From a virus: a stretch of 48,695 nt of DNA. This document shows positions 11,119 through 42,364 of the stretch, piece by piece. The position numbers and the translations under genes are program-made. Positions within the stretch are counted from its first letter, which is position 1; every line of letters begins with the position of its first letter. Location of the stretch: the IMG/VR virus record IMGVR_UViG_3300029582_000014. The stretch is one strand, 5' to 3'. Under the pieces are notes generated by a model. That model searched no databases. It was not told where the DNA came from and was given only the letters and a program-made list of their open reading frames with translations.

Positions 11119-12933
11119 TTACAAAATCCCTCCCGTGGACCGTCTGCCGCGCCGCTTCTGCGGCACCGGGGCGGCTTCCCGCTCCGGCTTCTTCAATACT
11201 GGGTTCGCAATTTCCAGCGCGACAGTCGCATAATTCCGAATGTCAAGCGGCTCATTCCGCTTGTAGCCCCCGTCTTTCAGGGTCCAGACATATTGTGCTT
11301 TTCCTTTTTTGTAGGTGATGACCATTTTTTCGGCGGTCAGGCCGCGGAAATACTCTTGTGTGTACCCCCGGTCCTTTTCCCGCGGGAAATGGCAATAATT
11401 CGGCCCCTCTTCCTGCACCGCCAACCGCTGATACAATAGCGCCTTTCCAGTGTCAACGCCCACGGTGAAAAGGGGGGCTTTGATATTATTTGCCGTTGAC
11501 GGCCTGTTGAAATACGGTACTTCTGCGCCGCCTTTGCCCTTTATTGCGAACACGCGCCGGGCGGTCCGTTCTTTGCAGAATCGGTAAACCTGCGTCGTGA
11601 AGTGTCCGCCGGAATCCACGCAGGCGCAAATGATTTTCAGCCGCCGCCCGTCCGCCGTCGTGAACGTCTGCGAAAGAAAGCGGTCCAGTTCATCCCATAC
11701 AGGTTTCAGCTTCAAGTCTCCGTAGATCGCTTGATACTTGATACCCCAGCTTTCTTTATCAACGCCCCAACCGACAACCTCCACTTCAAAGCGGTCGTCC
11801 TGAACGTCCACGCCCGCGGTCAGCACAAGCACTTCTTCCGGGACCTCGCAATTATAGCGTTCCCGCCGCTTGTAAAGGTCGTCCGTTTCGATCTGTTCGC
11901 CCTCTTCCTCCCACGTTTCGCCCATTTCGGTATTTGTCCACGCTTTCAGAAGTTCGATATTGCCTTTTTTCTTCTCTTCGTTCGCGGTCAGGAATTTTTC
12001 GACGATTTCCCGCCACTCCACAAAGAGGGAGGCAAGGGCGTTCAGGTGAAACCCCCGGACCTTCCTTTCCGGGTGGGCCGCAACAAATTTCCCTTTCCTG
12101 AATTGCTCCTTCCATTCCGTTTCGCTGGAAACCACGCCGCACGCCGGGCAAACGCACCCGATGTCGTCCAGCTTGTCTTTGTCGAATATGATGTTCGCCC
12201 ACAAAAGGGGGGTGTATGCCCCGCACGCCGGGCAAGGTACGTTCCATTCCTCTTGTGTGCTGTGTTCGTACTCAACCGCAATCCGTGACGTTTCCTTGAT
12301 GGTCGGCGTACTGACGCAGACTTCCTTCTTGTTCCAGAAGGTCGCAAGCCGCTTCCCGGCCAGCAAGAGGGGGTCGCCCTCATTTCCAGCCGTGGCCGGG
12401 TAGCGATCTATTTCGTCCGCAAGCAGAATCCGAATTGGGCGGGAGGCAAGGGAGGAAGGGGAATTTGCCCCAACCATTGTGACGTGTCCGCCGGGGAATA
12501 TCTTTTGCAAGATGGTGTTTCCGCTGTTCCGGCTCTTGTCGTTCACCTTATCCCGCAGAACGGGCGTGTCCCGCAACATCGGCGTTAGGCGGTCCTTGCT
12601 GAACGTCTCCGCCATTTGAATGGTCGGTTGCATGACCATAATAGGCGACGGGTCATAGTGCATATAGTAGCCTATGGGGTTCAAAATCAGCGCGTCGGTT
12701 TTCCCGATCTGCGCCGCCGACATGATGACGACCTTTTGAACCCGCATATCGCAAACCGCGTCCATGATCTCGCGTTGGTATGGGGCCTTTGACGTGCGCC
12801 AGCGCCCCGGCTCCGCCGACGATTCAGAGGAAAGGCGGCGGTATTCGTCCGCCCATTGTGAAATTGTCATGTCCGGTGGAGGGGCCAGCACTGAAAAAAT
12901 CCGGGTGAACAGGTCAACCGTCGCTTTTTTCAT
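11119..12933 (-). CDS. terL: Terminase large subunit, lambda GpA family
   Basis: 604 aa. The N-terminus ..ISQWADEYRRLSSESSAEPGRWRTSKAPYQREIMDA.. is characteristic of GpA-type terminases. Confidence 0.9.
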   Translation of the reverse strand: MKKATVDLFTRIFSVLAPPPDMTISQWADEYRRLSSESSAEPGRWRTSKAPYQREIMDAVCDMRVQKVVIMSAAQIGKTDALILNPIGYYMHYDPSPIMVMQPTIQMAETFSKDRLTPMLRDTPVLRDKVNDKSRNSGNTILQKIFPGGHVTMVGANSPSSLASRPIRILLADEIDRYPATAGNEGDPLLLAGKRLATFWNKKEVCVSTPTIKETSRIAVEYEHSTQEEWNVPCPACGAYTPLLWANIIFDKDKLDDIGCVCPACGVVSSETEWKEQFRKGKFVAAHPERKVRGFHLNALASLFVEWREIVEKFLTANEEKKKGNIELLKAWTNTEMGETWEEEGEQIETDDLYKRRERYNCEVPEEVLVLTAGVDVQDDRFEVEVVGWGVDKESWGIKYQAIYGDLKLKPVWDELDRFLSQTFTTADGRRLKIICACVDSGGHFTTQVYRFCKERTARRVFAIKGKGGAEVPYFNRPSTANNIKAPLFTVGVDTGKALLYQRLAVQEEGPNYCHFPREKDRGYTQEYFRGLTAEKMVITYKKGKAQYVWTLKDGGYKRNEPLDIRNYATVALEIANPVLKKPEREAAPVPQKRRGRRSTGGIL

Positions 12934-17642: not shown

Positions 17643-17882
17643 TTATTTCCGTTTCTTCTTCCGCGGCGGCGCTTCCAGCCGCACCAGTGGGCCGCGCCCG
17701 TCCAGTTCATACAGGAATACGGCTTCCCCGGTCTGCGCGCTGTACTGGCACACAATGTCGGTGATCGTGCGGACCGCCGCCGGGAATTTGAACGCCAGTT
17801 CCGGCGGGTGTATTTCCCGCCCCGTCACGATCTTGTCGCCTATCTCATAGGGGCAAGAGGCGGAAATTTTTATGGTCGTCAT
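17643..17882 (-). CDS. Small hypothetical protein, paralogue of 17918..18280
   Basis: Shares the blocks CP[YF]EIGDKI, ITDIVC, FLYELD and LVRLE.PPR with the upstream gene. Confidence 0.65.
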   Translation of the reverse strand: MTTIKISASCPYEIGDKIVTGREIHPPELAFKFPAAVRTITDIVCQYSAQTGEAVFLYELDGRGPLVRLEAPPRKKKRK

Positions 17883-17917: not shown

Positions 17918-18280
17918 TTACCCAAACCGCCGCTTGATGTATGCCACGAATTCCGGTGGAAGCAGACAGCCGTTTTCACCTTCTCCGCAACCCTTCTTTC
18001 CGTTCTCCCGGTCCACCGCCTGCCGCTCCCGTTCCTGCGGTCGCGGCGGCATTTCGAGGCGCACCAGTTTCCCGCTGTCGTCCAGTTCGTAAAGGAATTC
18101 TGTTTTCCCGCTCCGAACGTAATTCATACACACAATGTCGGTGATCGTGTGTTCCTCTTCTACAACTGCCGCCGGGTCAAGTCTGAACGCCTCTGCCTCT
18201 CCCGGCGTTGCCCTCCGTCTGCTCTTGATTTTGTCCCCGATCTCGAAAGGACACGTTGCGTTGAATGCTGTGAATTTCAT
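17918..18280 (-). CDS. Small hypothetical protein, paralogue of 17643..17882
   Basis: Internal ATG at 18280 is preceded by acggaggccgaataATG. The longer 230-aa reading has no RBS and an Arg/Gly-rich head. Confidence 0.65.
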   Translation of the reverse strand: MKFTAFNATCPFEIGDKIKSRRRATPGEAEAFRLDPAAVVEEEHTITDIVCMNYVRSGKTEFLYELDDSGKLVRLEMPPRPQERERQAVDRENGKKGCGEGENGCLLPPEFVAYIKRRFG

Positions 18281-23019: not shown

Positions 23020-23549
23020 CCCCGCTCCCTCTCTTTCTCTGCTTCTGTTGCCATCATGTCGGCGGTATGCAGGGCCAGCACAAGCGGGGTCCGCTCCATT
23101 GCCGCCGAAAGGGAATAGCTTCCGCCGCGGGCCGCGTCGTCATACGCTCCCATGTGCCAGCGAATCGCAAGGGCTTCCGGCTCTGCCAGCTTCATAAACT
23201 GCTGAATCAGGAAAACAGATTTTTCCCCGTGGCCGAAAGGGAAGTGGTCTTTCACGGTGTAGCTTCCGTCCGCCTGCTGGTGGTAGAAGTCCACCTTGCA
23301 GAGATCGTGAAGCAGGGCGCATATTGCGCGGGTTTCCATCGTGTAGTCCTTCACATACGGTCCGTCAATCAGGGCGAAATAAACGTTCAAACTGTGATCG
23401 ACAAGCCCGCCGGGGTAGGCTCCGTGAAATCTGGTGCTTGCCGGGGCGGTGAAAAAGTCGGTGCTTTCCAGCCACGCCAGCAGTTCCGGCGCGCCCGTCC
23501 GGGTAATCTGTGTTTGGTAAATATCTTTGAACCGCTCTTCGTTTGTCAT
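23016..23549 (-). CDS. HD-domain phosphohydrolase
   Basis: Contains FHGAYPGGLVDHSLNV ... ALLHDLCK ... GHGEKS. Confidence 0.75.
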   Translation of the reverse strand: MTNEERFKDIYQTQITRTGAPELLAWLESTDFFTAPASTRFHGAYPGGLVDHSLNVYFALIDGPYVKDYTMETRAICALLHDLCKVDFYHQQADGSYTVKDHFPFGHGEKSVFLIQQFMKLAEPEALAIRWHMGAYDDAARGGSYSLSAAMERTPLVLALHTADMMATEAEKERERG

Positions 23550-24472
23550 GTGTGCAACCTCCGTTCCTTGTGCCGCTCCAAGTATTCGCCCCAGCTTTCT
23601 TTCAGGTATGACCGCCCGTAAATAAACCGCTGGGCGAATTCCTTTTGAAGCGCGTTTGGTATGATTCCTTTCCGCTCGTTCCGCTCCGGCTGTGCGTATA
23701 TGCTGATACCCTTTAGGCGTTTCAGCCGCTCTACCCGGTAGGCCGCGTTCTCCACGTCCTCCGTGACAAGCAGGTAAATAAACAGGTGATACGGCTTCTT
23801 CCCGTGGTTCCCCAGCAGTTCCGCCGCCCGCTCGATTGCCTCAATCTGCGGTATCTGGTCGCACGAAAAGCGAATGAACCGAATCCACGTCAGCCGCGCC
23901 AGTATTCCCGCTATGCGGTCATCGACCAACCGCGCGTCCATGCCTTGATTTAGGTCTATCGCGTACCCGCTCCCGATCATGCTTTCAAGCTGGGAAATTC
24001 CGTATTCGGAAGCAAGAATGTTGTTGTCCATCAGGACAAGTTTGTTCGCGTCCGGGCGCACAACCTGTTTCCATTCCCTGTACGGCTTTATTCCGCCCTC
24101 TTTTTCCGGGACCACGCACCACGGGCAACGATTCGGGCAACCGCGGGTCAAATATCCTATTGCATAGTCGCATTCCGGGTAAATGCTGTAATCGGGAAAG
24201 GCCGCGTCGATCTCCGGCGGTAACTGCTGGTTTATCGGTATGTCGTCATATCCGGTCCCGCCGCGTATTGTGTCCGGCGGCAAATACAGGTTTTCCGGTG
24301 TGAAGTCAAATACTTTGCTTGAATACACCCGGTCATACTGGCACATAGGGGACCACCATTCGACGGAATCCCCGCGGGCTTTGTGGTAGGCCGAAATCTT
24401 CATCAAGGCATAGTTCGGAAAGGTCTTGTGCCTCATGTACTCCTGTTCCGCGTCGTGAAGTCCTATCCGCAT
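23546..24472 (-). CDS. Radical SAM enzyme
   Basis: CX3CX2C cluster motif in GYLTRGCPNRCPWCVVPE. ATG at 24472. Confidence 0.7.
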   Translation of the reverse strand: MRIGLHDAEQEYMRHKTFPNYALMKISAYHKARGDSVEWWSPMCQYDRVYSSKVFDFTPENLYLPPDTIRGGTGYDDIPINQQLPPEIDAAFPDYSIYPECDYAIGYLTRGCPNRCPWCVVPEKEGGIKPYREWKQVVRPDANKLVLMDNNILASEYGISQLESMIGSGYAIDLNQGMDARLVDDRIAGILARLTWIRFIRFSCDQIPQIEAIERAAELLGNHGKKPYHLFIYLLVTEDVENAAYRVERLKRLKGISIYAQPERNERKGIIPNALQKEFAQRFIYGRSYLKESWGEYLERHKERRLHT

Positions 24473-24485
24473 AGCACACCCCGCT

Positions 24486-24866
24486 TCACAACTCCACAAT
24501 TCCGCCGATATTGTCCACGTCGGCCCGCGTGACGCTCCGGCGCTTCAATATTCCGGCGATCACGTCCCCGTAACGCTCCCAGCGTGCGGACACAAGGGCG
24601 AAATACCGCAATTCCGGGTTTGCCCGCGCCCGGTTCTGCAAGCATTGCATAACGTGGTCGTCAATCTCCATTTTCAGGGGATAGACGGCGATCTTTCCCG
24701 TTTCCTTGTCCACCTCCCGGCAAACCACCATTAGGCGCATTCTCTGTAATGGCTTTTCCGGCTCCGCCGCCGGGCGCGGGTCCCGCTCCTTATGCGCGCA
24801 ATCGCAAGGTTCACCCGCGTCCAAATGCGCCCCGCAATTTGGGCATTCCCGGTAAGGTGTTCCCAT
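24486..24866 (-). CDS. Hypothetical protein with an N-terminal zinc ribbon
   Basis: 126 aa. Sequence reads CPNCGAHLDAGEPCDC. Confidence 0.65.
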   Translation of the reverse strand: MGTPYRECPNCGAHLDAGEPCDCAHKERDPRPAAEPEKPLQRMRLMVVCREVDKETGKIAVYPLKMEIDDHVMQCLQNRARANPELRYFALVSARWERYGDVIAGILKRRSVTRADVDNIGGIVEL

Positions 24867-24881
24867 GTTGACCGCCCCTTT

Positions 24882-25639
24882 CTACATGAAATCAAAAAAG
24901 CTGATCTGGTTTTCTTCTAACTCGAAATTTCTTTCAATGTCCTGTAGGCCCTCGACAACCCGAAATTTTCCCGGCCTCACGGTTTCCGGGTCCGTTTGAA
25001 TTTTCATCATTTCTTCCCACAAATCCGGGTGGTGCTTCCGTAAATGCCGCAACTCTTCGTCCCGCGCATTCGGGCAGAAGAAACACCCCCCCGCTTTGTG
25101 AATTCGTAGATCGGGGACAACAGGCCCCGTTCTTTGCAAAGGTTCCGCGCCATTTCCTGCGTGTAGCCATACTTGACAAGCAGATAGCAACCCTCCGCCA
25201 GTTTTTCTTCCTTGATTCGGTTTTGTTCATCAACGCAAATTCCTTCATAGTAAACTGCTCCGGGGTGTTCTTTTCGGAATTTGTTCAGCGGGGGCAATTT
25301 GCAATCCCGTTTTATACTGCACCAGCCCTTCTTCCCCGAAAGCGGAAAGCCGTGTTTTTTCCCGGTCCGCGGCCCTTTTGTTACCCGCGATTCCATCCAT
25401 TCGCGGGCGGTCTTTTCAGCCCGCAACACGATTGTTTTTACTCCGCGTTGCTCAAAATACGGAATCGCGGTGTTGTATATGAAATCCCGATGTTCTGGAA
25501 CTTCCGCCGATCTTTCTTTGTCAAACATGATTTCGCAATAGACAAGGGCCGAAAGAGGTTCACCCTTTTCGATTGCAAGAATCGCCGTTGCTGTGCTGTC
25601 TGCCCCGAACGAACAGGACACGAAATATTCCTTTTTCAT
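24882..25639 (-). pseudogene. PAPS-reductase / PP-loop ATPase-like gene split by a frameshift in a G7 run
   Basis: ORF 25007..25639 starts with the PP-loop-like motif VSCSFGADST. After the G7 tract (plus-strand C7 at 25086..25092) the conserved ..GGCFFCPNARDEEL.. C-terminus continues in ORF 24882..25190. One extra G would restore a single ~253-aa frame. Confidence 0.75.
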
Positions 25640-25648
25640 TTCCTGTCC

Positions 25649-26470
25649 CTATTCCTTCTTGCGCAATTTCAGATAAATTGACCATCCCGTGAAGTCGTTG
25701 TATTCATACTGAACCCCGTAATCTTCGTCGGTTGGGGTCCATCCTGGGTACTTCTTTTCCCAAAACTCCCGGCCCGGACGCTCCCGCGCCCATTTTTCGA
25801 CCTGTCGGTGGTTGTACTTCCCGTCGTTGGTCCTGCTGTATGGCCGTTCGAGGTTGTGCGAGGAAGTCCACCGCTTCTTCCCGCCGCTCTGCTTCACAAG
25901 GTAGGTACAGAGGGCCGCAATCCCGTTTTCGTCCGATTGCAGGCGGTCAGCATTGCAAAACCCGATTCGGTCGCCCTTCTTCTGTCCCTTTCGCTTCCGC
26001 TTCCTCCACAACTCTTCCACCGCGTCGCGGTCCAGTCCGCCCGACATGATTATGTGGTGGTGAATTCGGACGGGCTTTTCACTGTTCCGCTTTGTGGTGT
26101 AGGCGGTGACAAGCATATATTTCAGGGGCGGCAAACCTTCCTTCTGCCTGCGGTATTGGACCCGGCGGAGGTAGTTTGTGACCTCCCGTTCCGCTTCCTC
26201 CACCGTGGCCGGAAGGTATTTCCCGCTGTATGTAGCCGTCACGTGCAACGCCTCCGGGTCACTCCCGAAATTCAGGTTTGCCGTCTGTATGAAGTAGCGC
26301 CGGGCGTTTTTGTCATTCAGGTTCTTTTGCTTCGGCTCCGATTCCCGGACCTTCTTTGACCGCTTCCCGCGGCCCGATGATAGCTTTTGCGTGTCCGTGT
26401 AGGAAAAAATATCGACTTCCCTATACCGATCACCGCAATAGATTTTCTTTTCTCGAATAAAGCAACGCAC
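25649..26470 (-). CDS. HUH rolling-circle replication initiator (Rep)
   Basis: GTG start. HUH motif in PVRIHHHIIM and a Tyr motif in ALCTYLVKQ. 273 aa. Confidence 0.65.
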   Translation of the reverse strand: MRCFIREKKIYCGDRYREVDIFSYTDTQKLSSGRGKRSKKVRESEPKQKNLNDKNARRYFIQTANLNFGSDPEALHVTATYSGKYLPATVEEAEREVTNYLRRVQYRRQKEGLPPLKYMLVTAYTTKRNSEKPVRIHHHIIMSGGLDRDAVEELWRKRKRKGQKKGDRIGFCNADRLQSDENGIAALCTYLVKQSGGKKRWTSSHNLERPYSRTNDGKYNHRQVEKWARERPGREFWEKKYPGWTPTDEDYGVQYEYNDFTGWSIYLKLRKKE

Positions 26471-26802: not shown

Positions 26803-26930
26803 AGGTTGATAGATGATATATTTTCATCGGCGGAATCCGCTTCGTGTTGCTCTGCAAAGCACCACGGGACGGTTTTTCTTATGCTGTTTTTACTGCGGCG
26901 GGGAGGGGGTCAACCCTCCACCGCCTTTTT
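26803..26930 (+). ncRNA. Candidate ~128-nt small RNA between the promoter and the intrinsic terminator
   Basis: The promoter at 26768-26796 and the terminator at 26897-26930 bracket a segment with no credible ORF. It is antisense to the leader between the VR2 gene and rep. Confidence 0.4.
26897..26930 (+). terminator. Intrinsic terminator on the plus strand
   Basis: Stem GGCGG-GGAGGG / CCCTCC-(A)-CCGCC, 6-nt loop, then TTTTT. It overlaps the stop codon of the minus-strand VR2 gene. Confidence 0.6.
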
Positions 26931-27644
26931 GTCTGTCTCTTCCTGCGCGATCTCTTCCGCGTCCTGTTTCGACTGGAATAAGGCGGCAACCGCCGCGCCC
27001 AGCGCGTCGCCCCACAAATAGGGCGGGTAATCTTCCAGCGCGGACAAGATCGCTTCCGCGGCTTCCTGCTTCATTTCTTCATGCCGCGCGGCCTGCTCCA
27101 CATCGTCCGCCCCCTCTCCGGGGATAGATACCGAAATTTCATATTTCAGATAGCAAAGCGGGCGAACGCCCCTGTAGCCGTTGCACGCATGGCGCCAGTC
27201 CAAAGCGCCGGAGGAATTGACGCTGCGGACGCTGCAAGAGTAGGACGCGTCGCACGTCCACGGGGTCAGGTTCCAGCACCACACGTCCACGGGCGGGGTG
27301 ATGTCCCGATACTTCCGGCACAGCGCGTCGGACCGCAAGGCGATCTTGTCCACGGCGGTTCCGTAATCGGTCATTCCGTCGTCGGCGGTCAGGTCGCTTT
27401 CCCAATCGAGGAACGCGGCCCGGTCTGCGCCCTCCGCAACCAGCGCGTCGAGGAACGCCCCGTTCAGTTCCCGGCGCAAAGAGGATTTCCGCCAGTCGTT
27501 GCAGTTCTCTTCATCGAATGCCCGGAGAAAAACAGGCTCCGCGGCCAGACAGAGGGTTCCCGCTCCGATGTCCTCGAATTTGACCCACTCTACGCCGCCA
27601 TACAGAAAACGTGCGCCCTGCGCCAGTTCAGAAAGTTTCTTCAT
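26910..27644 (-). CDS. DGR variable protein 2 (244 aa), a paralogue of the N-terminal domain of the 572-aa target
   Basis: Contains VR2 (aa 132-164, ..DASYSCSVRSVNSSGALDWRHACNGYRGVRPLC..). It shares W..S.LR..LN and DKI motifs with the other target. Confidence 0.85.
   Translation of the reverse strand: MKKLSELAQGARFLYGGVEWVKFEDIGAGTLCLAAEPVFLRAFDEENCNDWRKSSLRRELNGAFLDALVAEGADRAAFLDWESDLTADDGMTDYGTAVDKIALRSDALCRKYRDITPPVDVWCWNLTPWTCDASYSCSVRSVNSSGALDWRHACNGYRGVRPLCYLKYEISVSIPGEGADDVEQAARHEEMKQEAAEAILSALEDYPPYLWGDALGAAVAALFQSKQDAEEIAQEETDKKAVEG
27154..27249 (-). repeat. DGR variable repeat VR2
   Basis: 96-nt near-copy of TR. The 11 differences all fall at TR adenines (coding strand). There is also one C/T difference near the 3' end. 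Confidence 0.9.
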
Positions 27645-28775: not shown

Positions 28776-29165
28776 TCACCCTCTTTCCCAAATCCGCTTG
28801 ACTTCTTCGCAACAGTAGTCCGCGCCGTTTGTCAGCACCCAGTCTTTCAGGTCGTCCCGCTGTGTGCGCTTGCAATGCCGTTCCAGCGCGTCGAAATCGT
28901 CTTGCAGGGTGTCCGGGTTCAGGAATTTCAGATTTTGCCCCGTGCCGAACGCCAGTTCAGCCGAAACCACAATGCACCCCGTCCCGTCGTAGGTATCCGG
29001 GTGAATCCGAATGAACAGGTTCCCCAGCTTCATTTTGAAGTAGCCGGGCATTGCAACTTCTTCTTTTTCAAGGCCCTTTGCGGTCCCGAATTCCTGCACC
29101 GCAACCGCGCGGGCGGTTTTCAAGGTCAGCTTCACGCCGCCGGGGTAGTTCTTTTTCATGGTCAT
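28776..29165 (-). CDS. Hypothetical protein
   Basis: 129-aa ORF in the array. Confidence 0.65.
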   Translation of the reverse strand: MTMKKNYPGGVKLTLKTARAVAVQEFGTAKGLEKEEVAMPGYFKMKLGNLFIRIHPDTYDGTGCIVVSAELAFGTGQNLKFLNPDTLQDDFDALERHCKRTQRDDLKDWVLTNGADYCCEEVKRIWERG

Positions 29166-29605
29166 TCCGCCTCCCGCTCGAATCGGATTTTCATTTGTGC
29201 GGGGTATAGGTCAACCGTTGGCCGTCGTCTCCCGGTCCACCGCAATCCCCCGGCTTGTCCTACACACTTCCAGCCCGCGGCCCGCAGACTGGCCCCGTTT
29301 TCGCTTTCCAGAATGTAAGTCACCAGCCGTTTATATCCCATAGCGCGGGCGGCTCTCCATGCGGCGGCATATAGCATTGAACAGGCATTGCGGGTCCCAT
29401 CCGTGCATAACCTGTTCACTTCCAGCGTCCAGCCGTCGTCCAAATGACGGGCCACAGGTCGCCCCACAATGGCAACTCCCACAATCTTTTCGCCATCGGA
29501 AAGCCCGATGGAAAACTTGTGGCCTACGGTCGGCCCGTGGTGTCTGTGGTTCTGTTCGACGAACGCGTTTGCCTCTTTTAGCTTGATCGGCACAACTTCC
29601 AGCAT
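29162..29605 (-). CDS. Hypothetical protein, possibly GNAT-fold acyltransferase-like
   Basis: 147 aa. The sequence ..ANAFVEQNHRHHGPTVGHKFSIG..VGVAIVGRPVARHLDDGWTLEVNRLCTDG.. resembles a prophage family I recall as GNAT-related. This is a weak assignment from memory. Confidence 0.6.
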   Translation of the reverse strand: MLEVVPIKLKEANAFVEQNHRHHGPTVGHKFSIGLSDGEKIVGVAIVGRPVARHLDDGWTLEVNRLCTDGTRNACSMLYAAAWRAARAMGYKRLVTYILESENGASLRAAGWKCVGQAGGLRWTGRRRPTVDLYPAQMKIRFEREAE

Positions 29606-29829
29606 TAGACCGCCTCCGCCGCCACAGTTTCAAGGCCCAGCCACCAGCCCGGACTATTCCGTTTATCCTCATAGGGACAAGGGCTTCCGTCGTCACAACT
29701 GACTTTCCCGCACCCGGCGCAATAGTTCCGCTGGAATTCTTCGTCCCACGGCCCTTCCAAGATCGGCAAGCCCCGCAAGAATGCGGCCAGCGTCTCCGGG
29801 TTTTTGGTGATCGCTTCAAAATTAGTCAC
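29605..29829 (-). CDS. Small Cys-rich hypothetical protein
   Basis: GTG at 29829 after aaggaggtttgcgcg. It overlaps the upstream TAA. Confidence 0.5.
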   Translation of the reverse strand: MTNFEAITKNPETLAAFLRGLPILEGPWDEEFQRNYCAGCGKVSCDDGSPCPYEDKRNSPGWWLGLETVAAEAV

Positions 29830-30097
29830 CGCGCAAACCTCCTTGTAAATTTCCCGCCGCGGGCTTCCCCCGCCGTTTGAAACTCTCCTGAACCCGCTGT
29901 TGCGCAAGAACGGGGCTATACGCCCGCCGTTGGTTGCGGTCCAGCCCTCCGGTTTCCCCGCGCTTCAACTCGCGGTACACCGTCGCCGCTGTCACTCCCA
30001 GCCCGTCGGCTATGTCGGCCACGCGGTCGCCGTTCAGGTAGCGGGTTGAAATCTGCTTCCGGTCCTGAAAGGTTATATATCTGTACTGCCGCACCAC
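29822..30097 (-). CDS. Stand-alone IS30-type HTH protein (resembles a transposase N-terminus)
   Basis: 91 aa. ..ITFQDRKQIS..ADIADGLGVTAATVYRELKRG..YSPVLAQ.. parallels ..LTKYDRYKLE..QIAEELHVHVSTIYREIKRA..YNPDGAE.. in the adjacent transposase. Confidence 0.65.
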   Translation of the reverse strand: MVRQYRYITFQDRKQISTRYLNGDRVADIADGLGVTAATVYRELKRGETGGLDRNQRRAYSPVLAQQRVQESFKRRGKPAAGNLQGGLRGD

Positions 30098-30148: not shown

Positions 30149-30246
30149 TAAATGCGATAGAACTTGCACCCGTCGTTCGACGTGGTGTTTGTTCTTTCGC
30201 ATTTAATATTACAAGGCGCGTTCGCAAATGTCAATAGTAAATGCGA
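30149..30246. repeat. AT-rich island with three copies of TAAATGCGA
   Basis: Copies at 30149..30157 (+), 30197..30205 (inverted) and 30238..30246 (+), in a 178-bp AT-rich gap between the HTH gene and the transposase stop. Confidence 0.7.
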
Positions 30247-30275: not shown

Positions 30276-31322
30276 TCAGGCGAGGGCCGCGAGGCATTCC
30301 CGGAAACAAATTTCAGCGGTTTTCCAGCCCAGTATTTCCCGCGGATAGTTGTTAATCCAATCTTCCGCCCGCTTCACCGCGGCGGCGCTCACGGCTCCGA
30401 AATCCGTTCCCTTTGGAAACTTCCGGCGAATCATTTTGTTCTGGCATTCGTTGGACCCGCGTTCATAAGAGGAATACGGGTGACAGAAATAGGCCGTCGT
30501 CCGCCTCCGACCCTTCCGCACGGCGGACCGCTCCAGCCGCTCCACGTCGGAGAACTCCCCGCCGTTGTCGAACGTGATCGTCTGGAACGCCTTTGCGAAA
30601 AGGTCCGCGCCGAATCTCCGTTCGATCTGGTCCAGCGCCTTTATTACGCTGTTCGCGGTCCGGTCCTTGATTCTTGCAATAATTTCCCATCGGGTCAAAC
30701 GCTCTGTCAGTACAAGCAAGGCTTTTGACCCGTCTTTTTTGCTGTAAACCGTGTCCCCCTCCCAATGCCCGAACGTGGTTCGCTGGTCCACTATTTCCGG
30801 GCGCTTATCAATGCTCTTCCCGTTTTGCCGTTTCCCGGTCTTTTTCACGGTTCGATAGGGGCGCTTCCTTTTTGGCTTCTCCGGCAAGTCTGCGTTGGTC
30901 AGGGACAGAAAAACCCCTTTCGTGATATAGCTGTAAAGCGTACTGACGCAGATTGACGTTTTGAACGCCTTCCCCTCTAACTTGATGTCAGCGAGGGCCG
31001 CGGCGGGTGAACGATCTTCGTCAAGAATTTTCCGTTCGATATAGTCCGCAAGTTCATAATCATTCCCAATTTTCAGGGGCGCGCCCTTTGCGGCAAGGTT
31101 TTCCCGGTATCTTTTTTCGGCTCCGTCCGGGTTGTAGCGATCTTCCACAATCCACGTGTCCCCGTCTAAATACTGCCAGCGGGCGCGCTTAATCTCCCGG
31201 TAAATCGTGCTAACATGAACGTGCAGTTCCTCCGCGATCTGTTTTTTTGAACACTTCATGTTCAGCATAGCTTCCAGCTTGTAGCGGTCGTATTTTGTCA
31301 GGTGACTAAAGCAATGTCCCAT
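30276..31322 (-). mobile_element. IS30-family DDE transposase gene (348 aa). Element ends are not resolved.
   Basis: N-terminal HTH (STIYREIKRA) and a DDE core including FGHWEGDTV. RBS is acggagggccagacgATG. Confidence 0.85.
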
Positions 31323-33143: not shown

Positions 33144-33217
33144 GTATAAAACTTGCACATACTAACGTGAGTATATTTGTGCATTTTCCCATCTTGCTTT
33201 TATACTAACGTTAGTAT
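33132..33217. promoter_or_regulatory. Cluster of three 16-bp palindromic operators, ATACT-N6-AGTAT
   Basis: Sites: 33132..33147 atactaacgcaagtat; 33159..33174 atactaacgtgagtat; 33202..33217 atactaacgttagtat (perfect palindrome). Confidence 0.7.
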
Positions 33218-33222
33218 ATAAT
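33194..33222 (+). promoter_or_regulatory. Promoter TTGCTT, 17-nt spacer, TATAAT, with the operator inside the spacer
   Basis: Read directly. It drives 33369..34601. Confidence 0.6.
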
Positions 33223-33368
33223 CATAATCAGAAAGAGGGAACACAAGCCGCCCGGTCGCTGGGGCGTAGAGTTCAGCGACGGCCAACCTTACGGGCCGAC
33301 ACGAAAAGGGGGCCGACACGGTAACAACAACACTTCAACTTCTGGTTTCATATATGGGAGGTAATCAC

Positions 33369-34642: not shown

Positions 34643-34662
34643 AAATTTTTTCGTTTTCCCTC

Positions 34663-34691
34663 TTGACTTTATACTAACGTTAGTATATAAT
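34663..34691 (+). promoter_or_regulatory. Promoter TTGACT, 17-nt spacer, TATAAT, with palindromic operator 34671..34686 inside the spacer
   Basis: Read directly. 34668..34706 is an exact 39-bp copy of 33199..33237. Confidence 0.7.
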
Positions 34692-34730
34692 CATAATCAG
34701 AAAGAGCGAAACGAACGGAGGTTTTCAAAA

Positions 34731-35200: not shown

Positions 35201-35431
35201 ATGAACAAAATCCGCCGCAAGGCCCTTCAAGAAATCTTCGATAAGCTGTCCGCCCTCTCTGACGAACTCGAATCCATCAAAGAGGAAGAGGACGAAAGCC
35301 GGGAGAATATGCCCGAAAGTCTGCAAGGTTCGGAACGCTATGAACAGTCTGAATCTGCCTCATACAGCATTGATGAAGCGATAGAATCCATCTCTTCCGC
35401 GTGTGACAGTATCGAAAGCGCAATGGAGTAA
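35201..35431 (+). CDS. Small, very acidic hypothetical protein (76 aa)
   Basis: ATG after aaaggggaattggt. Glu/Asp/Ser-rich (..ELESIKEEEDESRENMPESLQGSERYEQSE..). Confidence 0.55.
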   Translation: MNKIRRKALQEIFDKLSALSDELESIKEEEDESRENMPESLQGSERYEQSESASYSIDEAIESISSACDSIESAME

Positions 35432-36604
35432 ACAAAAAAGCCCGCCGGGGGTATTGGAGGCCCCGCCGGGCTTCGTGGCCGTTCCTGCGCCTCCTGTGGC
35501 CGTCTCCGCGGTGTCGTAGGTGATATAGGGTAACTTTCCGTGTTTGGTCCACCTGCGCCCGTTCAGGCCGGAGATAGCGCCGATATTCAGGCACGCCGTC
35601 ACCTGCACACAGTTCTTGAACGCCGGGGAACATTCGATCACCTTTCCGCCGCCGATGTAAACGCCGATATGACCTTTCAGCCACACAGCTTCCCCCGGAA
35701 TAATCTTGCTGAAATCGGTTGACAGGCCGGAACACTTCGTAATCATCGTGTCGGCCCCGATGTCCGGCACGCCGCCGGAGGCATAGGACGCGCCGCCGTA
35801 GGTTTTGGACGCGTCGCCGCACCAGCCCCACAGCACGCCTTTAATCAGGCACACGCAGTCGAATCCATAGACAGGTGGATTCTTGTTTGCCGCGGCCTTA
35901 ATCATTGCCGTTCGTGCCGCCTGCTTGTTGTAACTGTGGTTTGTGCAATACCGAGACACATTTCCCCCGGTCAGGGGCGCGCCAAAGCACCCCATGACAT
36001 AAAGGGTTTTGTAATGGTCCACGATGTCTTGCAGTTTCTCAATGAATTCAGACGCTTTCATTTTCCCGTCTCCCTTCGCGTCTGCGGGGCTTCCCGCCCC
36101 CGCCGTGGTATTTGACCCGCCGCCTGCTCCGGCCTGTCCTGCGCCGTCGTAGGCCGTTAGGCCGTATGATTCGATAAGCCGAATCAGCTTGTCCGCGTAC
36201 TGCGGGTCCGTGGCATAGCCCGCCGCCTTGATCGCCCGGCAAGCGGTTTTATAGTCCCGCTCCCCGATGACGGCTTTGTACCGGGCCGCGCCCGTGAGTA
36301 ATGCCGAATGGTCCGCCACGCTCTCTTCCCAACTGTCGTATGCCCGGAAAAGGGCCGTCACGGTGGTAAAGTTCACGCCGTCGTAACACTCTTGCGTTTT
36401 TGTGCTGTAAACGCGTCCCTTCCAGCTTGTCCCGGCCTTGATACCGAACAGGGCGTTTGCCTTGACGGTCAGCCCGGATTTACCCCAGCCGCTTTCCAAG
36501 ATCGCCTGTGCGATAGTCAAGGAGGCAAGCACGCCGCTTTTCTGCATATCTGCCGCGGCCAGCGCGCCCACCCGCTCGATAAATGATTTCTGTTCCTGTG
36601 TCAT
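35360..36604 (-). CDS. Endolysin: N-terminal GH73 glucosaminidase plus C-terminal NlpC/P60-type peptidase
   Basis: Contains AQAILESGWGKS..FGIK (GH73) and GFDCVCLIKGVLWG..GHIGVYIGGGKVIE (Cys/His peptidase). The 3' end overlaps the convergent gene. Confidence 0.85.
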   Translation of the reverse strand: MTQEQKSFIERVGALAAADMQKSGVLASLTIAQAILESGWGKSGLTVKANALFGIKAGTSWKGRVYSTKTQECYDGVNFTTVTALFRAYDSWEESVADHSALLTGAARYKAVIGERDYKTACRAIKAAGYATDPQYADKLIRLIESYGLTAYDGAGQAGAGGGSNTTAGAGSPADAKGDGKMKASEFIEKLQDIVDHYKTLYVMGCFGAPLTGGNVSRYCTNHSYNKQAARTAMIKAAANKNPPVYGFDCVCLIKGVLWGWCGDASKTYGGASYASGGVPDIGADTMITKCSGLSTDFSKIIPGEAVWLKGHIGVYIGGGKVIECSPAFKNCVQVTACLNIGAISGLNGRRWTKHGKLPYITYDTAETATGGAGTATKPGGASNTPGGLFCLLHCAFDTVTRGRDGFYRFINAV

Positions 36605-37903: not shown

Positions 37904-38388
37904 TTCGTACCACCACCCGCGGCCTCAATGATTGCCGCCATGCTTGCGGCAAGGTCTTCCGGAAGTTCCGCGCCGTATGTGATCGCCTCCACTTCGTCCA
38001 GTCCCGCCCGCGCAATCCACGCGTTTACATGGTTGCAGTAGGTCCGGTGATAGAAGATGTGCGCCGTCGCCGCCGTCGAAATTTCCGTGAATTCCTGCGC
38101 TGTAAACATTCGGCACAGTTCCCCGTCCGCGTGATAGGGGACCGCTTCGGCCCCCTCCTTTACGAACGTGTATTGTGCCATGATTTCCGTTTGGTCGTGT
38201 TCTGTCAAGCTGAAATGCTTTCCGCCCACGTCAATTCCCGCATAGATTGCCGCAGAACACGCAAGGCCGATTTCCTCTTTCTTTGCCTCCCGCACCTGTG
38301 CAATGTCGGTCCAGTCGTCGGGGGGCTTAATGCCCAGCCGGACAAGTCGCAGATTCCGAATACTATCTTCTTTGTGCTGTACGCTCAT
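37900..38388 (-). CDS. Putative tail-fibre assembly or accessory protein
   Basis: 162 aa. ATGA-coupled to the end of the DGR target gene. Positioned like P2 gpG. Confidence 0.55.
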   Translation of the reverse strand: MSVQHKEDSIRNLRLVRLGIKPPDDWTDIAQVREAKKEEIGLACSAAIYAGIDVGGKHFSLTEHDQTEIMAQYTFVKEGAEAVPYHADGELCRMFTAQEFTEISTAATAHIFYHRTYCNHVNAWIARAGLDEVEAITYGAELPEDLAASMAAIIEAAGGGTK

Positions 38389-40103
38389 TCAAAATTCCCC
38401 CCAACAGAAGAAATAAAGCAATCTCCGCTTGCGCCGTTGCGCTTCACCTTGATTCGGAAGTTGAATCCCCAGCTTTCCGCCGTCTTTGTCTCATTGGAAA
38501 AGAAAAACTTGCTCCCGCTGTTCACCGCCTGCGTCACGTCCTCCCACGTGGGGGAATCGTCGTTGCCGTTGTTGCACACTTCCACGGTAAATTCCGCGCC
38601 CGCGGGAATCTGCCGGGTGACGCTCATAATTGCTTTTGTAATCATAGCGTCCGCCGGAAGCGGGGTTGCAAGGGTGATTTCAATTTCCGTTTCGTTCTTG
38701 CTGAACGTATAAGTCCGGGTCGCGGCTCCGCCGTAATTGTCTGTTGCCGTGATCGTCAGCGTGTGGGACCCATTGGACAGCTTCACCCATTCGTCCGCTG
38801 TCACGTTGAACGTGTATTCCTGCCCGCTGGTCGCCGTGTAGGACCGCTTTTGCACGCCGTCGATCTTCTCAACAACGGTGATCGTCTGGCCGCTGTCTAC
38901 GTCCGTAACCGTGTACGCCTGTGAGAACGCCCCGGTCTTTGCCCCAAGGTCCGAATCACTCCCGCTGATCGTTGGCGGCGTGTTGTTCACCACGGTTCGG
39001 GTCTTGCTTGTGGTGTTGGCCGATTCCGCGCCCGCGCTGTCGTAAGCCCGGACCCGGTATGCAACGCTTGTCCAACCAAAGGTGATATTGTCCGTGTAAT
39101 TCCGGTTGATTCCCTTGTAGACCTGCGCCCAGCTTCCGCCGTTGTTCTGCCGCTCCAAAATGTACCCCGACAGGTTCCCGTCCGCGTCGGTGGAGGCCCC
39201 CCAGCTAATTTCAAGGGTGGACCCGCCGCGCACCGTCTCCGGGACCGTGATTGTGGACGGGGCGGAGGGGGCGCGGTTCCAAATGATCGTGTATGCGCCG
39301 TCCGAATCCTGGTTATCAGATACCAAGATGTCAGATTTGATATTACAAAGCGGGCGAACGCCCCCGTAGCCGCGGTACGCATTGAGCCAGTTCAAAGCGC
39401 CGGAGGAATAGACGTCGCGGACGTAGTAAGAGTTGGACGCATAGGCATCCGCCAGCCACCAGTACCAAGGCGAATTTGCATTCAAACTGCTGTTTGTGTA
39501 CTCGCTCTTGCTGACCGCCTCCGCCGTCGGCTTCGCCTGCCGGGAAGCGTCGTTGCTGAATATGGCCAGTTTGCTTCCGGCGGTCACGTCGCCGGACAAG
39601 CCCACTTCCGTACAGGTCGCAAGGAAGATTTTGTCCGTGCAACTCTCTGTTCCGCCTCCGTCCACCTGTGCTTTGCCGACGGTGTGGGTGGTGGTCAGCA
39701 GGGCGGCAAGGAAGTTCGCGGAGAACCCCGCTAAAAATCCCGCTTCCTGCTGGTATTCGTTGTAGTTGTCCCACACGTTCGCGTTGCTGGGCGGCGCGTC
39801 CTGCCCGTGCTGGGCCGAATACCACTGACCCGCCGCCGCTTGACTGTTCAGCCATTGGCGGATATTGGCATAAATCCATCGGTTATTTCCGTAGCGTTTC
39901 CGGTTGCTGTCGCTGTTGCCGCTCTCGATAGCGTCAAAGCATTTCAGCGAAATAATGCGTTCAGTAATCAGCGTGACGGAATTTGCGGGGTAGCCCGCAT
40001 GGTTCTTGTCCGCGATCTTCCAAACAATCGCCTTGCCGTTGTATAGCGTTCCGGTGTCCTTTACCAGCGCGCCCGCGGCAAGCGAACTCAACGCCTTTGC
40101 CAT
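38385..40103 (-). CDS. DGR variable protein 1: fibre/receptor-binding-like protein (572 aa) with an N-terminal variable lectin-like domain, FN3 and beta-rich C-terminal domains
   Basis: Contains VR1 at aa ~222-253 (..AYASNSYYVRDVYSSGALNWLNAYRGYGGVRPLC..). An FN3-like segment follows (PSAPSTITVPETVRGGSTLEISWGAS..YRVRAYDSAG). RBS is aaggagtgaaggaacATG. Confidence 0.9.
   Translation of the reverse strand: MAKALSSLAAGALVKDTGTLYNGKAIVWKIADKNHAGYPANSVTLITERIISLKCFDAIESGNSDSNRKRYGNNRWIYANIRQWLNSQAAAGQWYSAQHGQDAPPSNANVWDNYNEYQQEAGFLAGFSANFLAALLTTTHTVGKAQVDGGGTESCTDKIFLATCTEVGLSGDVTAGSKLAIFSNDASRQAKPTAEAVSKSEYTNSSLNANSPWYWWLADAYASNSYYVRDVYSSGALNWLNAYRGYGGVRPLCNIKSDILVSDNQDSDGAYTIIWNRAPSAPSTITVPETVRGGSTLEISWGASTDADGNLSGYILERQNNGGSWAQVYKGINRNYTDNITFGWTSVAYRVRAYDSAGAESANTTSKTRTVVNNTPPTISGSDSDLGAKTGAFSQAYTVTDVDSGQTITVVEKIDGVQKRSYTATSGQEYTFNVTADEWVKLSNGSHTLTITATDNYGGAATRTYTFSKNETEIEITLATPLPADAMITKAIMSVTRQIPAGAEFTVEVCNNGNDDSPTWEDVTQAVNSGSKFFFSNETKTAESWGFNFRIKVKRNGASGDCFISSVGGNFE
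39346..39441 (-). repeat. DGR variable repeat VR1
   Basis: 96-nt near-copy of TR. The 10 differences all fall at TR adenines (coding strand). There is also one C/T difference near the 3' end. Confidence 0.9.
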
Positions 40104-41329
40104 GTTCCTTCACTCCTTGTCTGTTTTTCTCCCTCCGAAAGCGTGTTGCGCACTTCTTCGGGGCTTGCGAGGTAGCCGCAGAAATAGCTTTCTCCGGCGG
40201 TTCTCGCTTTTCGCTTCCCGTTCAGCCATACGCTTTCAGGGAAAAGGCTTCTGAAAATCTGGTCCGTTTCCCGGATAAGGTGATAGCAGTTTCCCTTTTC
40301 CGCGTGGCTCCGCCAGCTTCCGTAAGACTGTTCGATTGCCGCAAGGGTGATCTTCCCCTTGTCCAGTAACGCCCGCTGTTTCTTTAGCTTCCGTTTCTCA
40401 TTGCTCTTGCTTGCCCTCCTAACCTTGCGAACTACTTTGCCCGAATCGGTCAAATACGTATGGAATCCCAAGAAATCAATTCCGTTGCGCAACGGGAAAA
40501 TGTTGGTTTTGTGGTTCAGCGTCAGCCCCAGCCGGGCCACATACGCTTGAATTTCCCGGAGGCAATACTGCAAATATTCCTTGTCCTCATGGATTAAATA
40601 GAAGTCGTCCATATATCTTCCGTAATACCGGATTCCCAGCTTTTCTTTTATGAAATGGTCAAGTCCCGAAAGGTACATGACCGCGAACCATTGTGAAGTC
40701 TGGTTCCCAATGGGAATTCCGGGGTTTTCGGTGCTGTCAATTATCATGTCAACCAGCCACAGAACGTCCCGGTCGTGGATAAATTGACGCACCATGCGTT
40801 TCAGCTGTTCATGCTGAATCGAGTAGAAATACTTTGTGATGTCGCATTTCAGAACCCAGCCGTCCGCATAATGGGCGGCGCGCGGGTCGGGCCGCGGCAA
40901 CCCCTCCTCCCGGCACCGTTGTTCCTCCCGCGCTTTCCGCTCAAAATAATAGGACCGCATAAACTCTTCCAGTCTATACAGTCCGTCGTGGGTCCCGCGG
41001 CCCTCTTGCGACGCGTAGTTGCCGCGGATAAAGGTCCGGGAAAATGCAGGCTCTAAAACATTGTCACATAAAGAGTGCTGAACAACCTTGTCCTTGAACG
41101 CATTTGTCATTACAATACGTTCTTTCGGCTCATACACCCGGAAAACAAAATAGTCCGACACGGTGTACGTCTTGTTTTTCAGCATGATTGACAGCAGGCA
41201 GAGGGCTTCCAGCAGGTTAGCTTCAAACTTCGCCACGCTGGGCTTTCCCCTCTTGCCCCGGCGGGCCTTTAGAAACCCCGCGTACAGGTTCCCGAAATCA
41301 TGGACCCGCTCGAATTGGGTTTGTTGCAT
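40088..41329 (-). CDS. DGR reverse transcriptase
   Basis: ATG at 41329 after aaggagcaattttttatt. Carries the motifs IPIGNQTSQ (DGR-type I/LGxxxSQ) and YMDD. 413 aa. Its stop overlaps the target gene start by 16 nt. Confidence 0.9.
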   Translation of the reverse strand: MQQTQFERVHDFGNLYAGFLKARRGKRGKPSVAKFEANLLEALCLLSIMLKNKTYTVSDYFVFRVYEPKERIVMTNAFKDKVVQHSLCDNVLEPAFSRTFIRGNYASQEGRGTHDGLYRLEEFMRSYYFERKAREEQRCREEGLPRPDPRAAHYADGWVLKCDITKYFYSIQHEQLKRMVRQFIHDRDVLWLVDMIIDSTENPGIPIGNQTSQWFAVMYLSGLDHFIKEKLGIRYYGRYMDDFYLIHEDKEYLQYCLREIQAYVARLGLTLNHKTNIFPLRNGIDFLGFHTYLTDSGKVVRKVRRASKSNEKRKLKKQRALLDKGKITLAAIEQSYGSWRSHAEKGNCYHLIRETDQIFRSLFPESVWLNGKRKARTAGESYFCGYLASPEEVRNTLSEGEKQTRSEGTWQRR

Positions 41330-41583
41330 AATAAAAAATTGCTCCTTGCCGTGTATAGAATCCGCCTTGCGGCGGTCGCAGACGCGCCGCGCCTGCCGTC
41401 GCAATGCTTCATCATCGGACCCCACCACGCGCCCGCGGTGGGGCGGAAGCTGGTTCCCGTGGGCCTTGCTTCACCAATCTTGTATTTACCGTCATGCTGT
41501 CACCACGGCGGAGGGATACGGCTTCCTTTGATGGTGGTCCTCTGTTTTCAGCCGTTCGGCTTACTCATTTCGCGGTATTCCAC

Positions 41584-41679
41584 CAGAGCGGGCGAACGCC
41601 CCTGTTGCCGTTGTACGCATTGTTCCAGTTCAAAGCGCCGGAGGAATTGACGTTGCGGACGTTGTAAGAGTTGGACGCT
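41584..41679 (-). repeat. DGR template repeat (TR), non-coding
   Basis: Lies 33 nt after the avd stop and 254 nt before the RT start. It contains 22 adenines, including 9 AAY triplets in the VR reading frame. Confidence 0.9.
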
Positions 41680-41712
41680 ACAAGCCGTACCCCAAGAAAA
41701 ACGCCCCGGCGA

Positions 41713-42132
41713 TCACCGCCGCGGCGCGTTTCCTCTTTTCTGTTGCAGGGCGGCGAACCGCTCCCGGTCCTGCTTTTTCCACTTTGCTGTCATGCGCTTT
41801 ACGTCAAGGATATAATTTGACCATGCGGCGCATTGCTCCGCGGAAATCCGCTTGCATTCGTGGGAAAGCTCCACCAGAAACAGGGCGGTTTTGCACTCCG
41901 TCAACGCCTTTTTCTGTTCGTACTGCCGTTCCCGGAATTCCTGCGGGTCGGAAACGTCAAGTTCGTTCGCCTCCTGTACGTGCTGGAAGATGTCAAGCAC
42001 AAGATCGCAAACCCGGTTTGCAATCGTGAATCGGTATTTATTCGGAAACCTCTTCGCGGTCGCCATCTTGAACGTGTGCTTGACTAAATCCTTTGCCTTT
42101 ACAATGATGACGAACTCTTTTTCATCTGCCAC
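41713..42132 (-). CDS. avd: Avd-like accessory variability determinant (four-helix-bundle protein)
   Basis: Sequence ..IIVKAKDLVKHTFKMATAKRFPNKYRFTIANRVCDLVLDIFQHVQEAN.., small and basic, directly upstream of TR. The start is ambiguous (GTG 42132 or TTG 42165). Confidence 0.75.
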   Translation of the reverse strand: MADEKEFVIIVKAKDLVKHTFKMATAKRFPNKYRFTIANRVCDLVLDIFQHVQEANELDVSDPQEFRERQYEQKKALTECKTALFLVELSHECKRISAEQCAAWSNYILDVKRMTAKWKKQDRERFAALQQKRGNAPRR

Positions 42133-42364
42133 GCAGTAAGCACCGCCTTTCCCTGATTTTCTCAATCTCCGCCGGGTCCCCCTCGAACCGGAATCCCCAT
42201 TCTGTGACGGTCAGAACCGCCCGCGCTCCGGTGTACGTCCTCCCGCTGATCGTCAGTTCGTCAGCGTCGGAGGCGCACGCCGCGCAAGGCGGTTCGATCT
42301 CCACAAACAGGCTTCCAATAATGCAGGACAGTTCCCGCCGGGTACACGCAAAGTCCGTCAACAT
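42122..42364 (-). CDS. Small hypothetical protein between the fibre gene and avd
   Basis: 80 aa. Its ATG overlaps the fibre stop (ATGTTGA). Confidence 0.5.
   Translation of the reverse strand: MLTDFACTRRELSCIIGSLFVEIEPPCAACASDADELTISGRTYTGARAVLTVTEWGFRFEGDPAEIEKIRERRCLLRGR

Follow-up and report, generated by a model that had tools for sequence, protein, structure and literature searches.

The question raised by this locus is why a phage with a diversity-generating retroelement (DGR) would carry a second variable repeat in a gene that lies among its replication genes, far from the reverse transcriptase (RT). The DNA analysed is the virus record IMGVR_UViG_3300029582_000014 from IMG/VR, taken at its full length of 48,695 nt and referred to below as the window. 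It belongs to a myovirus-like gut phage that carries a single DGR with two target genes: target 1, adjacent to the RT, and target 2, an open reading frame (ORF) for a stand-alone DUF6273 protein, on which this text concentrates. The overall best explanation, to which we give a probability of about 0.85, is that target 2 is an active second target of the DGR, a diversified binder made together with the early genes.

One template and two variable repeats

A 95-nt sequence is present in the window in three minus-strand copies (coordinates in Table 1). One of them, which is adenine-rich and sits between the Avd-like ORF and the RT gene, is the template repeat (TR); the other two are the variable repeats VR1, in target 1, and VR2, in target 2. 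The RT translation contains IGNQTSQ, which we take to be the DGR-type I/LGxxxSQ motif, a mark of DGR RTs. On the 48,596-bp circle formed by the genome, the spacing from TR is 2.1 kb for VR1 and 14.3 kb for VR2. An initial annotation of this DNA had given the sequence and coordinates of VR2 and a distance of about 14 kb from TR, and the repeat was found again at that place.

Differences between the VRs and TR fall mostly on template adenines. VR2 has 11 mismatches, 10 of them on adenines of TR (hypergeometric P = 3e-7, given 21 adenines among the 95 nt), and VR1 has 10 mismatches, 9 of them on adenines, at sites largely other than those of VR2. The single non-adenine difference is identical in both VRs, with CTTTG at the 3' end where TR has CTCTG. 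These counts bear out the earlier description of a common CTTTG signature combined with differing A-site substitutions. VR1 and VR2 share the GC-rich 3' terminal segment GGGGCGTTCGCCCGCTTTG, at which TR has ...CTCTG. All VRs compared (VR1 and VR2 of the window and those of the related loci L086-L092) end in ...GCCCGCTTTG, and all TRs (the window, L087, and L089) end in ...GCCCGCTCTG. Similarity of the VRs to TR stops immediately past CTTTG, which would match the expectation for a 3' end of the initiation of mutagenic homing (IMH) type.

The variable codons of VR2 are 12 in number (135, 137, 138, 141, 143, 149, 151, 152, 154, 155, 157, and 158). At these sites TR has, in the VR frame, nine AAY codons, two TAC codons, and one AGG codon, which corresponds to ~10^12 protein variants. 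The 28 nt that follow both VRs have ~71% DNA similarity, for which the last beta-strand of the domain, conserved as C-x-[LI]-K-x-[ED]-I-x-V-S, can account.

Diversification in natural populations was assessed on protein homologues. The search with target 2 returned more than 700 of them; the best 120 were used, and 119 full-length sequences (80-95% identical) were aligned with the window protein. The set for target 1 comprised 120 homologues (91-100% identical). According to the mean Shannon entropy per column, which represents between-sample and not read-level diversity, the 12 TR-adenine codons of target 2 reach 2.56 bits, compared with 0.27 bits for the other VR codons and 0.25 bits for the rest of the protein. 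For target 1, the adenine codons reach 2.57 bits, compared with 0.07 for the remaining VR codons and 0.05 for the protein beyond the VR. Among the best 120 of the more than 700 homologues, 119 of 120 VR2 peptides are distinct. The residues found at variable sites have the same spectrum for VR1 and VR2, mainly Y, N, D, S, and G. In related IMG/VR genomes, TR (L087 and L089) is 100% identical to that of the window and every VR differs, at adenine sites, with the distinction between CTTTG and CTCTG kept. One 49.4-kb IMG/VR contig is a full-length relative with the same three-copy layout; DNA searches for close annotated relatives in the phage collection gave short, distant matches only.

We are nearly certain that VR2 is a genuine DGR target, and on sequence grounds it is a currently active second homing site of the single DGR, with a population diversity equal to that of VR1. 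The competing explanation makes VR2 a fossil or a chance repeat, in which a segment of a paralogous DUF6273 gene resembles TR by coincidence and has ceased to be rewritten, or never was. Targets 1 and 2 are paralogous, so some likeness is expected, and no significant hairpin was found 3' of VR2. However, the two genes are barely alignable beyond the 95-nt core and ~28 nt next to it, yet the core of VR2 is 88% identical to TR with adenine-only differences apart from the shared 3' end, and the variation among the VR2 peptides is confined to TR-adenine codons. Since the entropy at these codons equals that of VR1, VR2 is not a fossil. Adenine specificity, population entropy, and the invariant TR of relatives together refute a fossil or chance repeat, an explanation that we regard as extremely improbable. 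The initial annotation had proposed a second, remote, and independently diversified target, and had named an invariant VR2 or a disrupted ORF in relatives as evidence to the contrary; the proposal holds, with 2.56 versus 0.25-0.27 bits among the 119 homologues, a constant TR, and a different sequence in every VR.

Two metagenomic proteins, P0346 and P0359, have the N-terminal DUF6273 domain of the tentaclin (target 1) joined to the C-terminal tail of target 2 exactly at the VR. They are most simply explained as assembly chimeras formed via the shared 95-nt repeat, the alternative being real recombination between VR1 and VR2. Either origin calls for caution with metagenome assemblies of two-target DGR phages.

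The target 2 protein and its relatives

According to profile searches, target 2 belongs to the phrog_9958 family (E 2.7e-59, residues 2-193 versus profile positions 5-202 of 210), and its C-terminal part matches Pfam DUF6273 (E 9e-6). It is 35-40% identical to the tgt2 proteins of nd4 and nd12 and ~29% identical to the Toutatis and Lelie homologues (tblastn and alignment). Target 1 has DUF6273 at aa 41-257 (E 2e-33), followed by immunoglobulin (Ig)-like domains. The two targets are confidently alignable only around the VR, with weak similarity at the domain N-terminus. The initial annotation had regarded target 2 as a paralogue of only the N-terminal domain of a fibre-like target; the common DUF6273 domain supports the paralogy, but target 1 is a tentaclin with a 'Hoc-like' profile match and no demonstrated fibre. 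As for the lack of a transmembrane (TM) segment or signal peptide, this earlier statement was confirmed: the maximal Kyte-Doolittle mean over 19 residues is 1.09, and the N-terminus of target 2 does not look signal-like, as judged without a dedicated signal-peptide predictor.

The protein continues for 80 residues past VR2, in agreement with the acidic helical tail of 80 aa described before. The last 69 residues have an isoelectric point (pI) of 4.05 and are predicted to form a helix-loop-helix (two helices, modest confidence). Acidic tails of variable length also follow the domain in nd4, nd12, Toutatis, and Lelie. A full-library search with the acidic tail gave matches only at the C-termini of the same family, and the tail was therefore rejected as an independent module. 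The apparent HAD-like fusion P0374 was likewise rejected as evidence of modularity: the HAD-like gene is the usual upstream neighbour, so P0374 represents a deletion or fusion within the same locus.

AlphaFold2 (AF2) gave a mean predicted local distance difference test (pLDDT) of 68.8 for full-length target 2, and 80.4 for aa 1-178, with a predicted template modelling score (pTM) of 0.80. In a Foldseek search of the PDB, the target 2 model had a single confident match, to the N-terminal DUF6273 domain of 9qa6 (probability 1.0, TM score 0.55), and the same chain is the only PDB profile match of the family by sequence (E 2.9e-5). Mtd, TvpA, and other C-lectin DGR targets are absent from both the PDB profile search (E ≤ 1) and the Foldseek results. 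Structure prediction and superposition on C-lectin targets, suggested in the initial annotation, thus yielded a DUF6273 fold match but none to Mtd or TvpA, and the published C-lectin assignment is neither confirmed nor refuted. In 9qa6 (PMC12402451), the domain is the N-terminal part of a Thomasclavelia ramosa IgA peptidase, and its removal leaves catalytic efficiency unchanged. Although it is the only solved structure that matches both the family profile and the AF2 model, it belongs to a multidomain protease that is secreted and sortase-anchored, and it is no DGR target.

The position of the gene was surveyed in relatives, with one genome per species, at 77 loci, of which 69 were informative (at least 4 kb of total flank). 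The hosts are mostly Oscillospiraceae, Ruminococcaceae, Acutalibacter, Lachnospiraceae, and Christensenellales. At 58 of the 69 informative loci the small target has an early or replication marker within 7 kb, and 237 of 238 early-marker matches are co-oriented with it. This agrees with the initial annotation, which had placed target 2 among early genes directly upstream of the HUH Rep and had proposed such a survey. Early-operon synteny of the target 2 homologue is seen in nd4, nd12, Toutatis, Lelie, and loci L005, L006, and L007. The nd4 homologue overlaps the gene on either side and is followed by genes annotated as DNA polymerase III alpha, SSB, and DnaC. One related contig has the order helix-turn-helix (HTH) gene, IS30-like gene, small ORFs, target, Gam, ERF, SSB, DnaC-like, and RecU. 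In Toutatis and Lelie, the homologue has methyltransferases and a prohibitin-like gene around it, and the replication initiator and an annotated Q antiterminator follow a few kb downstream.

Avd or RT matches were found within 2 kb of the small target at 13 of the 69 loci. Among these 13, all but L026 form a distant clade of 12 loci (26-33% identity), the hosts of which are Faecousia and other Oscillospiraceae metagenome-assembled genomes. At L080 (9908-13411) the order is DnaB, Dam, small DUF6273 A, small DUF6273 B, Avd, an adenine-rich TR, RT, Rep of the same Pfam family, TerL, and portal. Both small DUF6273 genes contain a VR, and TR adenines account for 11 of 12 mismatches in one VR and 15 of 17 in the other. 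L070, L072, and other loci in the range L070-L084 with Avd or RT within 2 kb are organised similarly, with Rep or SSB downstream and then TerL. No tentaclin was found near the DGRs of this clade. Judging from gene order and repeats, the distant clade has a complete DGR that serves two tandem small targets within the replication module.

At the remaining locus, L026:10001-10405 (Neglectibacter sp. X58), the homologue matches only residues 2-137, and an RT-like match lies ~0.6 kb downstream. The homologue may be interrupted there, e.g., by a group II intron or another retroelement.

The two-target architecture with a distal small DUF6273 target has already been published, and the window is a new lineage of this described kind; what the survey adds is the early-operon address in 58 of 69 loci and the distant clade with a whole DGR and tandem small targets in the replication module. 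Baykov et al. 2023 (PMC10743442) reported one TR and two targets in nd4 and nd12, a tentaclin (DUF6273 and Ig) and the small DUF6273-only tgt2, the model of which is a C-lectin-like globule with short flanking helices and for which a Mtd-like receptor-binding role was proposed. Apart from the sequence identity given above, tgt2 resembles target 2 in being a small DUF6273-only protein of the early region with a VR near the 3' end of the domain and one TR common with the RT-adjacent tentaclin. In contrast, the genes downstream are HUH Rep, PAPS-reductase-like, and radical-SAM in the window but Gam/ERF/SSB/DnaC in nd4, the acidic tail of the window protein (69 aa) is longer than those of nd4 and nd12 tgt2, and nd12 has a DUF3310-like N-terminal extension that is absent from the window protein.

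In Faecalibacterium prophages, large and small DUF6273 targets were described in Lelie and CP11, with a function 'not entirely clear' and with variation at both VRs among genomes cognate to CP11 (PMC11792537). The second Toutatisvirus VR is 17,480 nt from TR, and some phages retain both targets without a DGR (bioRxiv 10.1101/2024.10.15.618418). Toutatis gp24, Lelie orf58, and CP11 are like the window in the distal second VR, in its place at the C-terminus of DUF6273, and in variation of both VRs among cognate genomes; Toutatis gp24 is also surrounded by early genes, and a same-family replication initiator lies a few kb downstream of it. Unlike target 2, however, gp24 has 215 aa with a short tail (~29% identity), and Toutatis has a large serine recombinase where the window phage has an IS30-like transposase.

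Distal second VRs have also been reported near counter-defence genes (e.g., methyltransferases) in induced human-gut prophages (PMC12629997), and in Roseburia phage Shimadzu (orf43/44) both VRs are modified according to read analysis (bioRxiv 10.1101/575076). These temperate gut phages likewise have the second VR far from the RT cassette, but they apparently belong to other lineages, and targets of the Lagaffe/Shimadzu type are Mtd/FGE-like and not DUF6273. As for BPP-1, Mtd resembles target 2 in that a ligand-binding surface close to the C-terminus is rewritten from TR to VR with adenine specificity, and in an IMH-like VR end that is unlike TR. Mtd, however, is the trimeric tip of the tail fibre, with a beta-prism and a beta-sandwich, and is DGR-adjacent in the tail module, whereas target 2 is a single domain located 14 kb from TR in an early operon and has no sequence or Foldseek similarity to it.

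Candidate roles of target 2

By analogy with the BPP-1 DGR, TR RNA would be reverse-transcribed with misincorporation at adenines, and the cDNA would replace, in trans, any VR bearing a cognate 3' initiation (IMH-type) sequence. Because replacement would act in trans, the distance of 14.3 kb is no obstacle, and the cognate 3' end common to both VRs would allow one TR to serve both of them. The product would be a soluble protein of 244 aa, with one DUF6273 ligand-binding domain that holds the 12 variable residues in its C-terminal part, followed by the acidic two-helix tail. What favours a protein made early is that the early-operon address is conserved, that the gene overlaps an early ORF, and that whole DGRs occur in replication modules. 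From gene order, we see about an even chance that target 2 is a free, non-structural (non-virion) binder, which would work inside the infected cell or the lysogen, or else leave it upon lysis. A broader proposal, which we find doubtful, is that small DUF6273 targets may be widespread early-expressed, non-virion, hypervariable, antibody-like binders directed against variable proteins of host defence or competitor phages. Under such a proposal, the tandem-target DGRs in replication modules would be dedicated to that function.

Alternatively, target 2 may be a virion-associated receptor-binding or adhesion protein like Mtd of BPP-1, docked via its C-terminal helical tail, in which case VR2 would broaden tropism. 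The same hypothesis has been published for tgt2 of nd4/nd12 and for Toutatis gp24, and it fits the TR and the spectrum of variable residues that target 2 has in common with the tentaclin; we consider it a serious candidate with well under an even chance. The co-oriented early or replication operon in 58 of 69 loci speaks against it, as do the place of the Toutatis gene upstream of the annotated Q antiterminator and that of the window gene outside the tail module. Furthermore, the protein opens directly with DUF6273, without the N-terminal beta-prism and beta-sandwich trimerisation modules of Mtd, and neither sequence nor Foldseek comparison relates it to Mtd or TvpA. Another possibility, which forms part of the non-virion reading and is to our mind rather unlikely, is an intracellular hypervariable binder of early infection or the lysogen, either a factor for counter-defence or host takeover or one that senses or excludes competing phages, for which the DGR would make it possible to track variable protein targets. 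Cytoplasmic DGR-diversified C-lectin 'antigen sensors' have reportedly been proposed in bacteria, which counts in its favour. So do the early-operon address beside Rep, Gam/ERF/SSB, methyltransferases, Mom, and VRR_NUC, the lack of a visible secretion signal, the tandem small targets with their own DGR in the replication module of the distant clade, and the distal second VRs beside counter-defence genes in gut prophages (PMC12629997). The argument, however, draws purely on the company the gene keeps: neither a partner nor an enzymatic or effector domain is present, the neighbour set is heterogeneous across the family, with a two-TM ORF upstream in some lineages only, and known DUF6273 domains are extracellular.

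The reading of target 2 as an active, early-made, and possibly non-virion binder also has several points against it, some of which keep a virion or extracellular role alive. Bacterial DUF6273 domains are typically found in secreted or surface proteins, e.g., as the IgA peptidase's N-terminal domain, which fits an extracellular role. The acidic helical tail, conserved in the family, could be a virion-docking element. In Toutatisvirus the small target is a core gene (98.8% of 173 genomes, bioRxiv 10.1101/2024.10.15.618418), as expected of an essential receptor-binding protein. In the papers examined, neither expression nor virion-proteomics data were found for any family member, whether for or against a place in the virion; the early, non-virion placement is drawn from gene order. 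A structural marker lies within 7 kb of the small target at 1 of the 69 loci, but the marker set consisted of four proteins from the window, and this negative is weaker than the early-marker positive. The VR segment is below pLDDT 50 in both AF2 models (residues 130-154 in the model of aa 1-178). The bAvd match of the Avd-like ORF has 24.3 bits, under the 40-bit Pfam cut-off, at a position upstream of TR that is canonical. Finally, no hairpin or cruciform was detected 3' of the VRs: DNA folding z-scores are +0.13 for VR2 and -0.36 for VR1, with no shared stem-loop, and with scores near 0 a shared DNA hairpin was rejected as a homing element. Not all DGRs have a DNA hairpin after the VR like that of BPP-1.

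Phage DGRs are understood almost wholly as tropism switches acting on tail or decoration proteins. If target 2 proves to be a non-virion protein, programmed hypermutation would also be of use within the cell or after lysis, e.g., in counter-defence, exclusion, or sensing. The caution of the initial annotation, that an early address is not the usual context of a tropism role, is reasonable. The value of the locus is that of a well-documented active member of a class with its second target in an early operon across many Clostridia prophage lineages, to which the comparison of relatives adds the conserved address and the whole DGRs with tandem small targets in replication modules.

Genome layout and neighbouring genes

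The window is a circular or terminally redundant genome of 48,596 bp, with a 99-nt terminal direct repeat (1-99 identical to 48597-48695). Every gene placed in the layout is on the minus strand, and Table 1 follows the order of transcription.

Table 1. Features of the window in transcription order, with supporting profile matches (Pfam and phrog)
Feature	Position	Strand	Remarks
Terminase and portal	terminase 11119-12933	-	first in order
Baseplate genes	43-45 kb	-	reached via the origin from terminase and portal
Tail-fibre N-terminal domain protein	42358-43248	-	after baseplate genes
DGR block (Avd-like gene, TR, RT, target 1)	38385-42165	-	after the tail-fibre N-terminal domain protein
Avd-like accessory gene, 150 aa	41713-42165	-	Pfam bAvd E 4.6e-5
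TR	41584-41678	-	21 A in 95 nt; between Avd-like ORF and RT
DGR reverse transcriptase	40088-41428	-	Pfam RVT_1 E 3e-14; TR 156 nt upstream of this ORF
Target 1, 572-aa tentaclin	38385-40103	-	phrog_10993 ('Hoc-like head decoration') E 1e-244
VR1	39346-39440	-	codons 222-252 of target 1
Membrane proteins and endolysin	endolysin 35360-36604	-	after target 1
Divergent regulatory region, then IS30-like transposase	transposase 30276-31322		HTH_38 and rve; after endolysin
HTH DNA-binding protein	29822-30097		phrog_11420; starts the early region together with the IS30-like transposase; followed by Mom-like protein and small ORFs
Mom-like protein	29162-29605		phrog_1384; upstream side of the target 2/Rep pair
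ORF of ~110 aa	27628-27960	-	two hydrophobic segments, basic (arginine-rich) N-terminus; immediately upstream of target 2
Target 2, stand-alone DUF6273 protein, 244 aa	26910-27644	-	phrog_9958 family
Target 2 globular DUF6273 domain, aa 1-175	27120-27644	-	AF2 model
VR2	27154-27248	-	codons 133-163 and two bases of codon 164 of target 2, in frame
Target 2 acidic C-terminal tail, aa 176-244	26910-27119	-	pI 4.05; 18 D+E versus 5 K+R
HUH-type replication initiator (Rep)	25649-26470	-	phrog_3584 E 5e-80; Pfam REP_ORF2-G2P E 6e-7; directly downstream of target 2
PAPS-reductase-like and radical-SAM proteins	23546-25639		phrog_424 and phrog_9298; downstream of Rep

The stop of the ~110-aa ORF overlaps the start of target 2 by 17 nt. 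A two-TM ORF of this size with the identical 17-nt overlap is kept in the window-like lineages L007 and L005 but is absent from nd4 and Toutatis, and it was therefore rejected as a family-wide partner of target 2. In many relatives a small HAD-like phosphatase gene, missing from the window, is located just upstream of the ~110-aa ORF. The best promoter-like site upstream of the early operon, and the only strong one on the minus strand, is TTGACA-17-TAATAT at 30206-30234 (a consensus match only); the scan gave nothing promoter-like immediately before target 2 and nothing terminator-like immediately behind it. The radical-SAM, PAPS-reductase-like, and Mom-like proteins suggest that candidate DNA-modification genes flank the target 2/Rep pair.

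Among the window ORFs scanned there was neither a tyrosine nor a serine integrase, and the IS30-like transposase is probably the integration enzyme of the phage. The pair of this transposase and the phrog_11420 HTH protein is shared by nd12 and several relatives. In the lysogeny/regulatory region, a 57-nt element is present in two copies that are 91% identical (33185-33241 and 34654-34710), each holding TTGAC(T)...TATAAT promoter-like hexamers and the palindrome TATACTAACGTTAGTATA; the paired elements look like promoter/operator sites of a genetic switch. Between the replication and packaging genes, there is also a 121-nt direct repeat with 74% identity (17649-17769 and 18029-18149), the copies of which are 380 nt apart.

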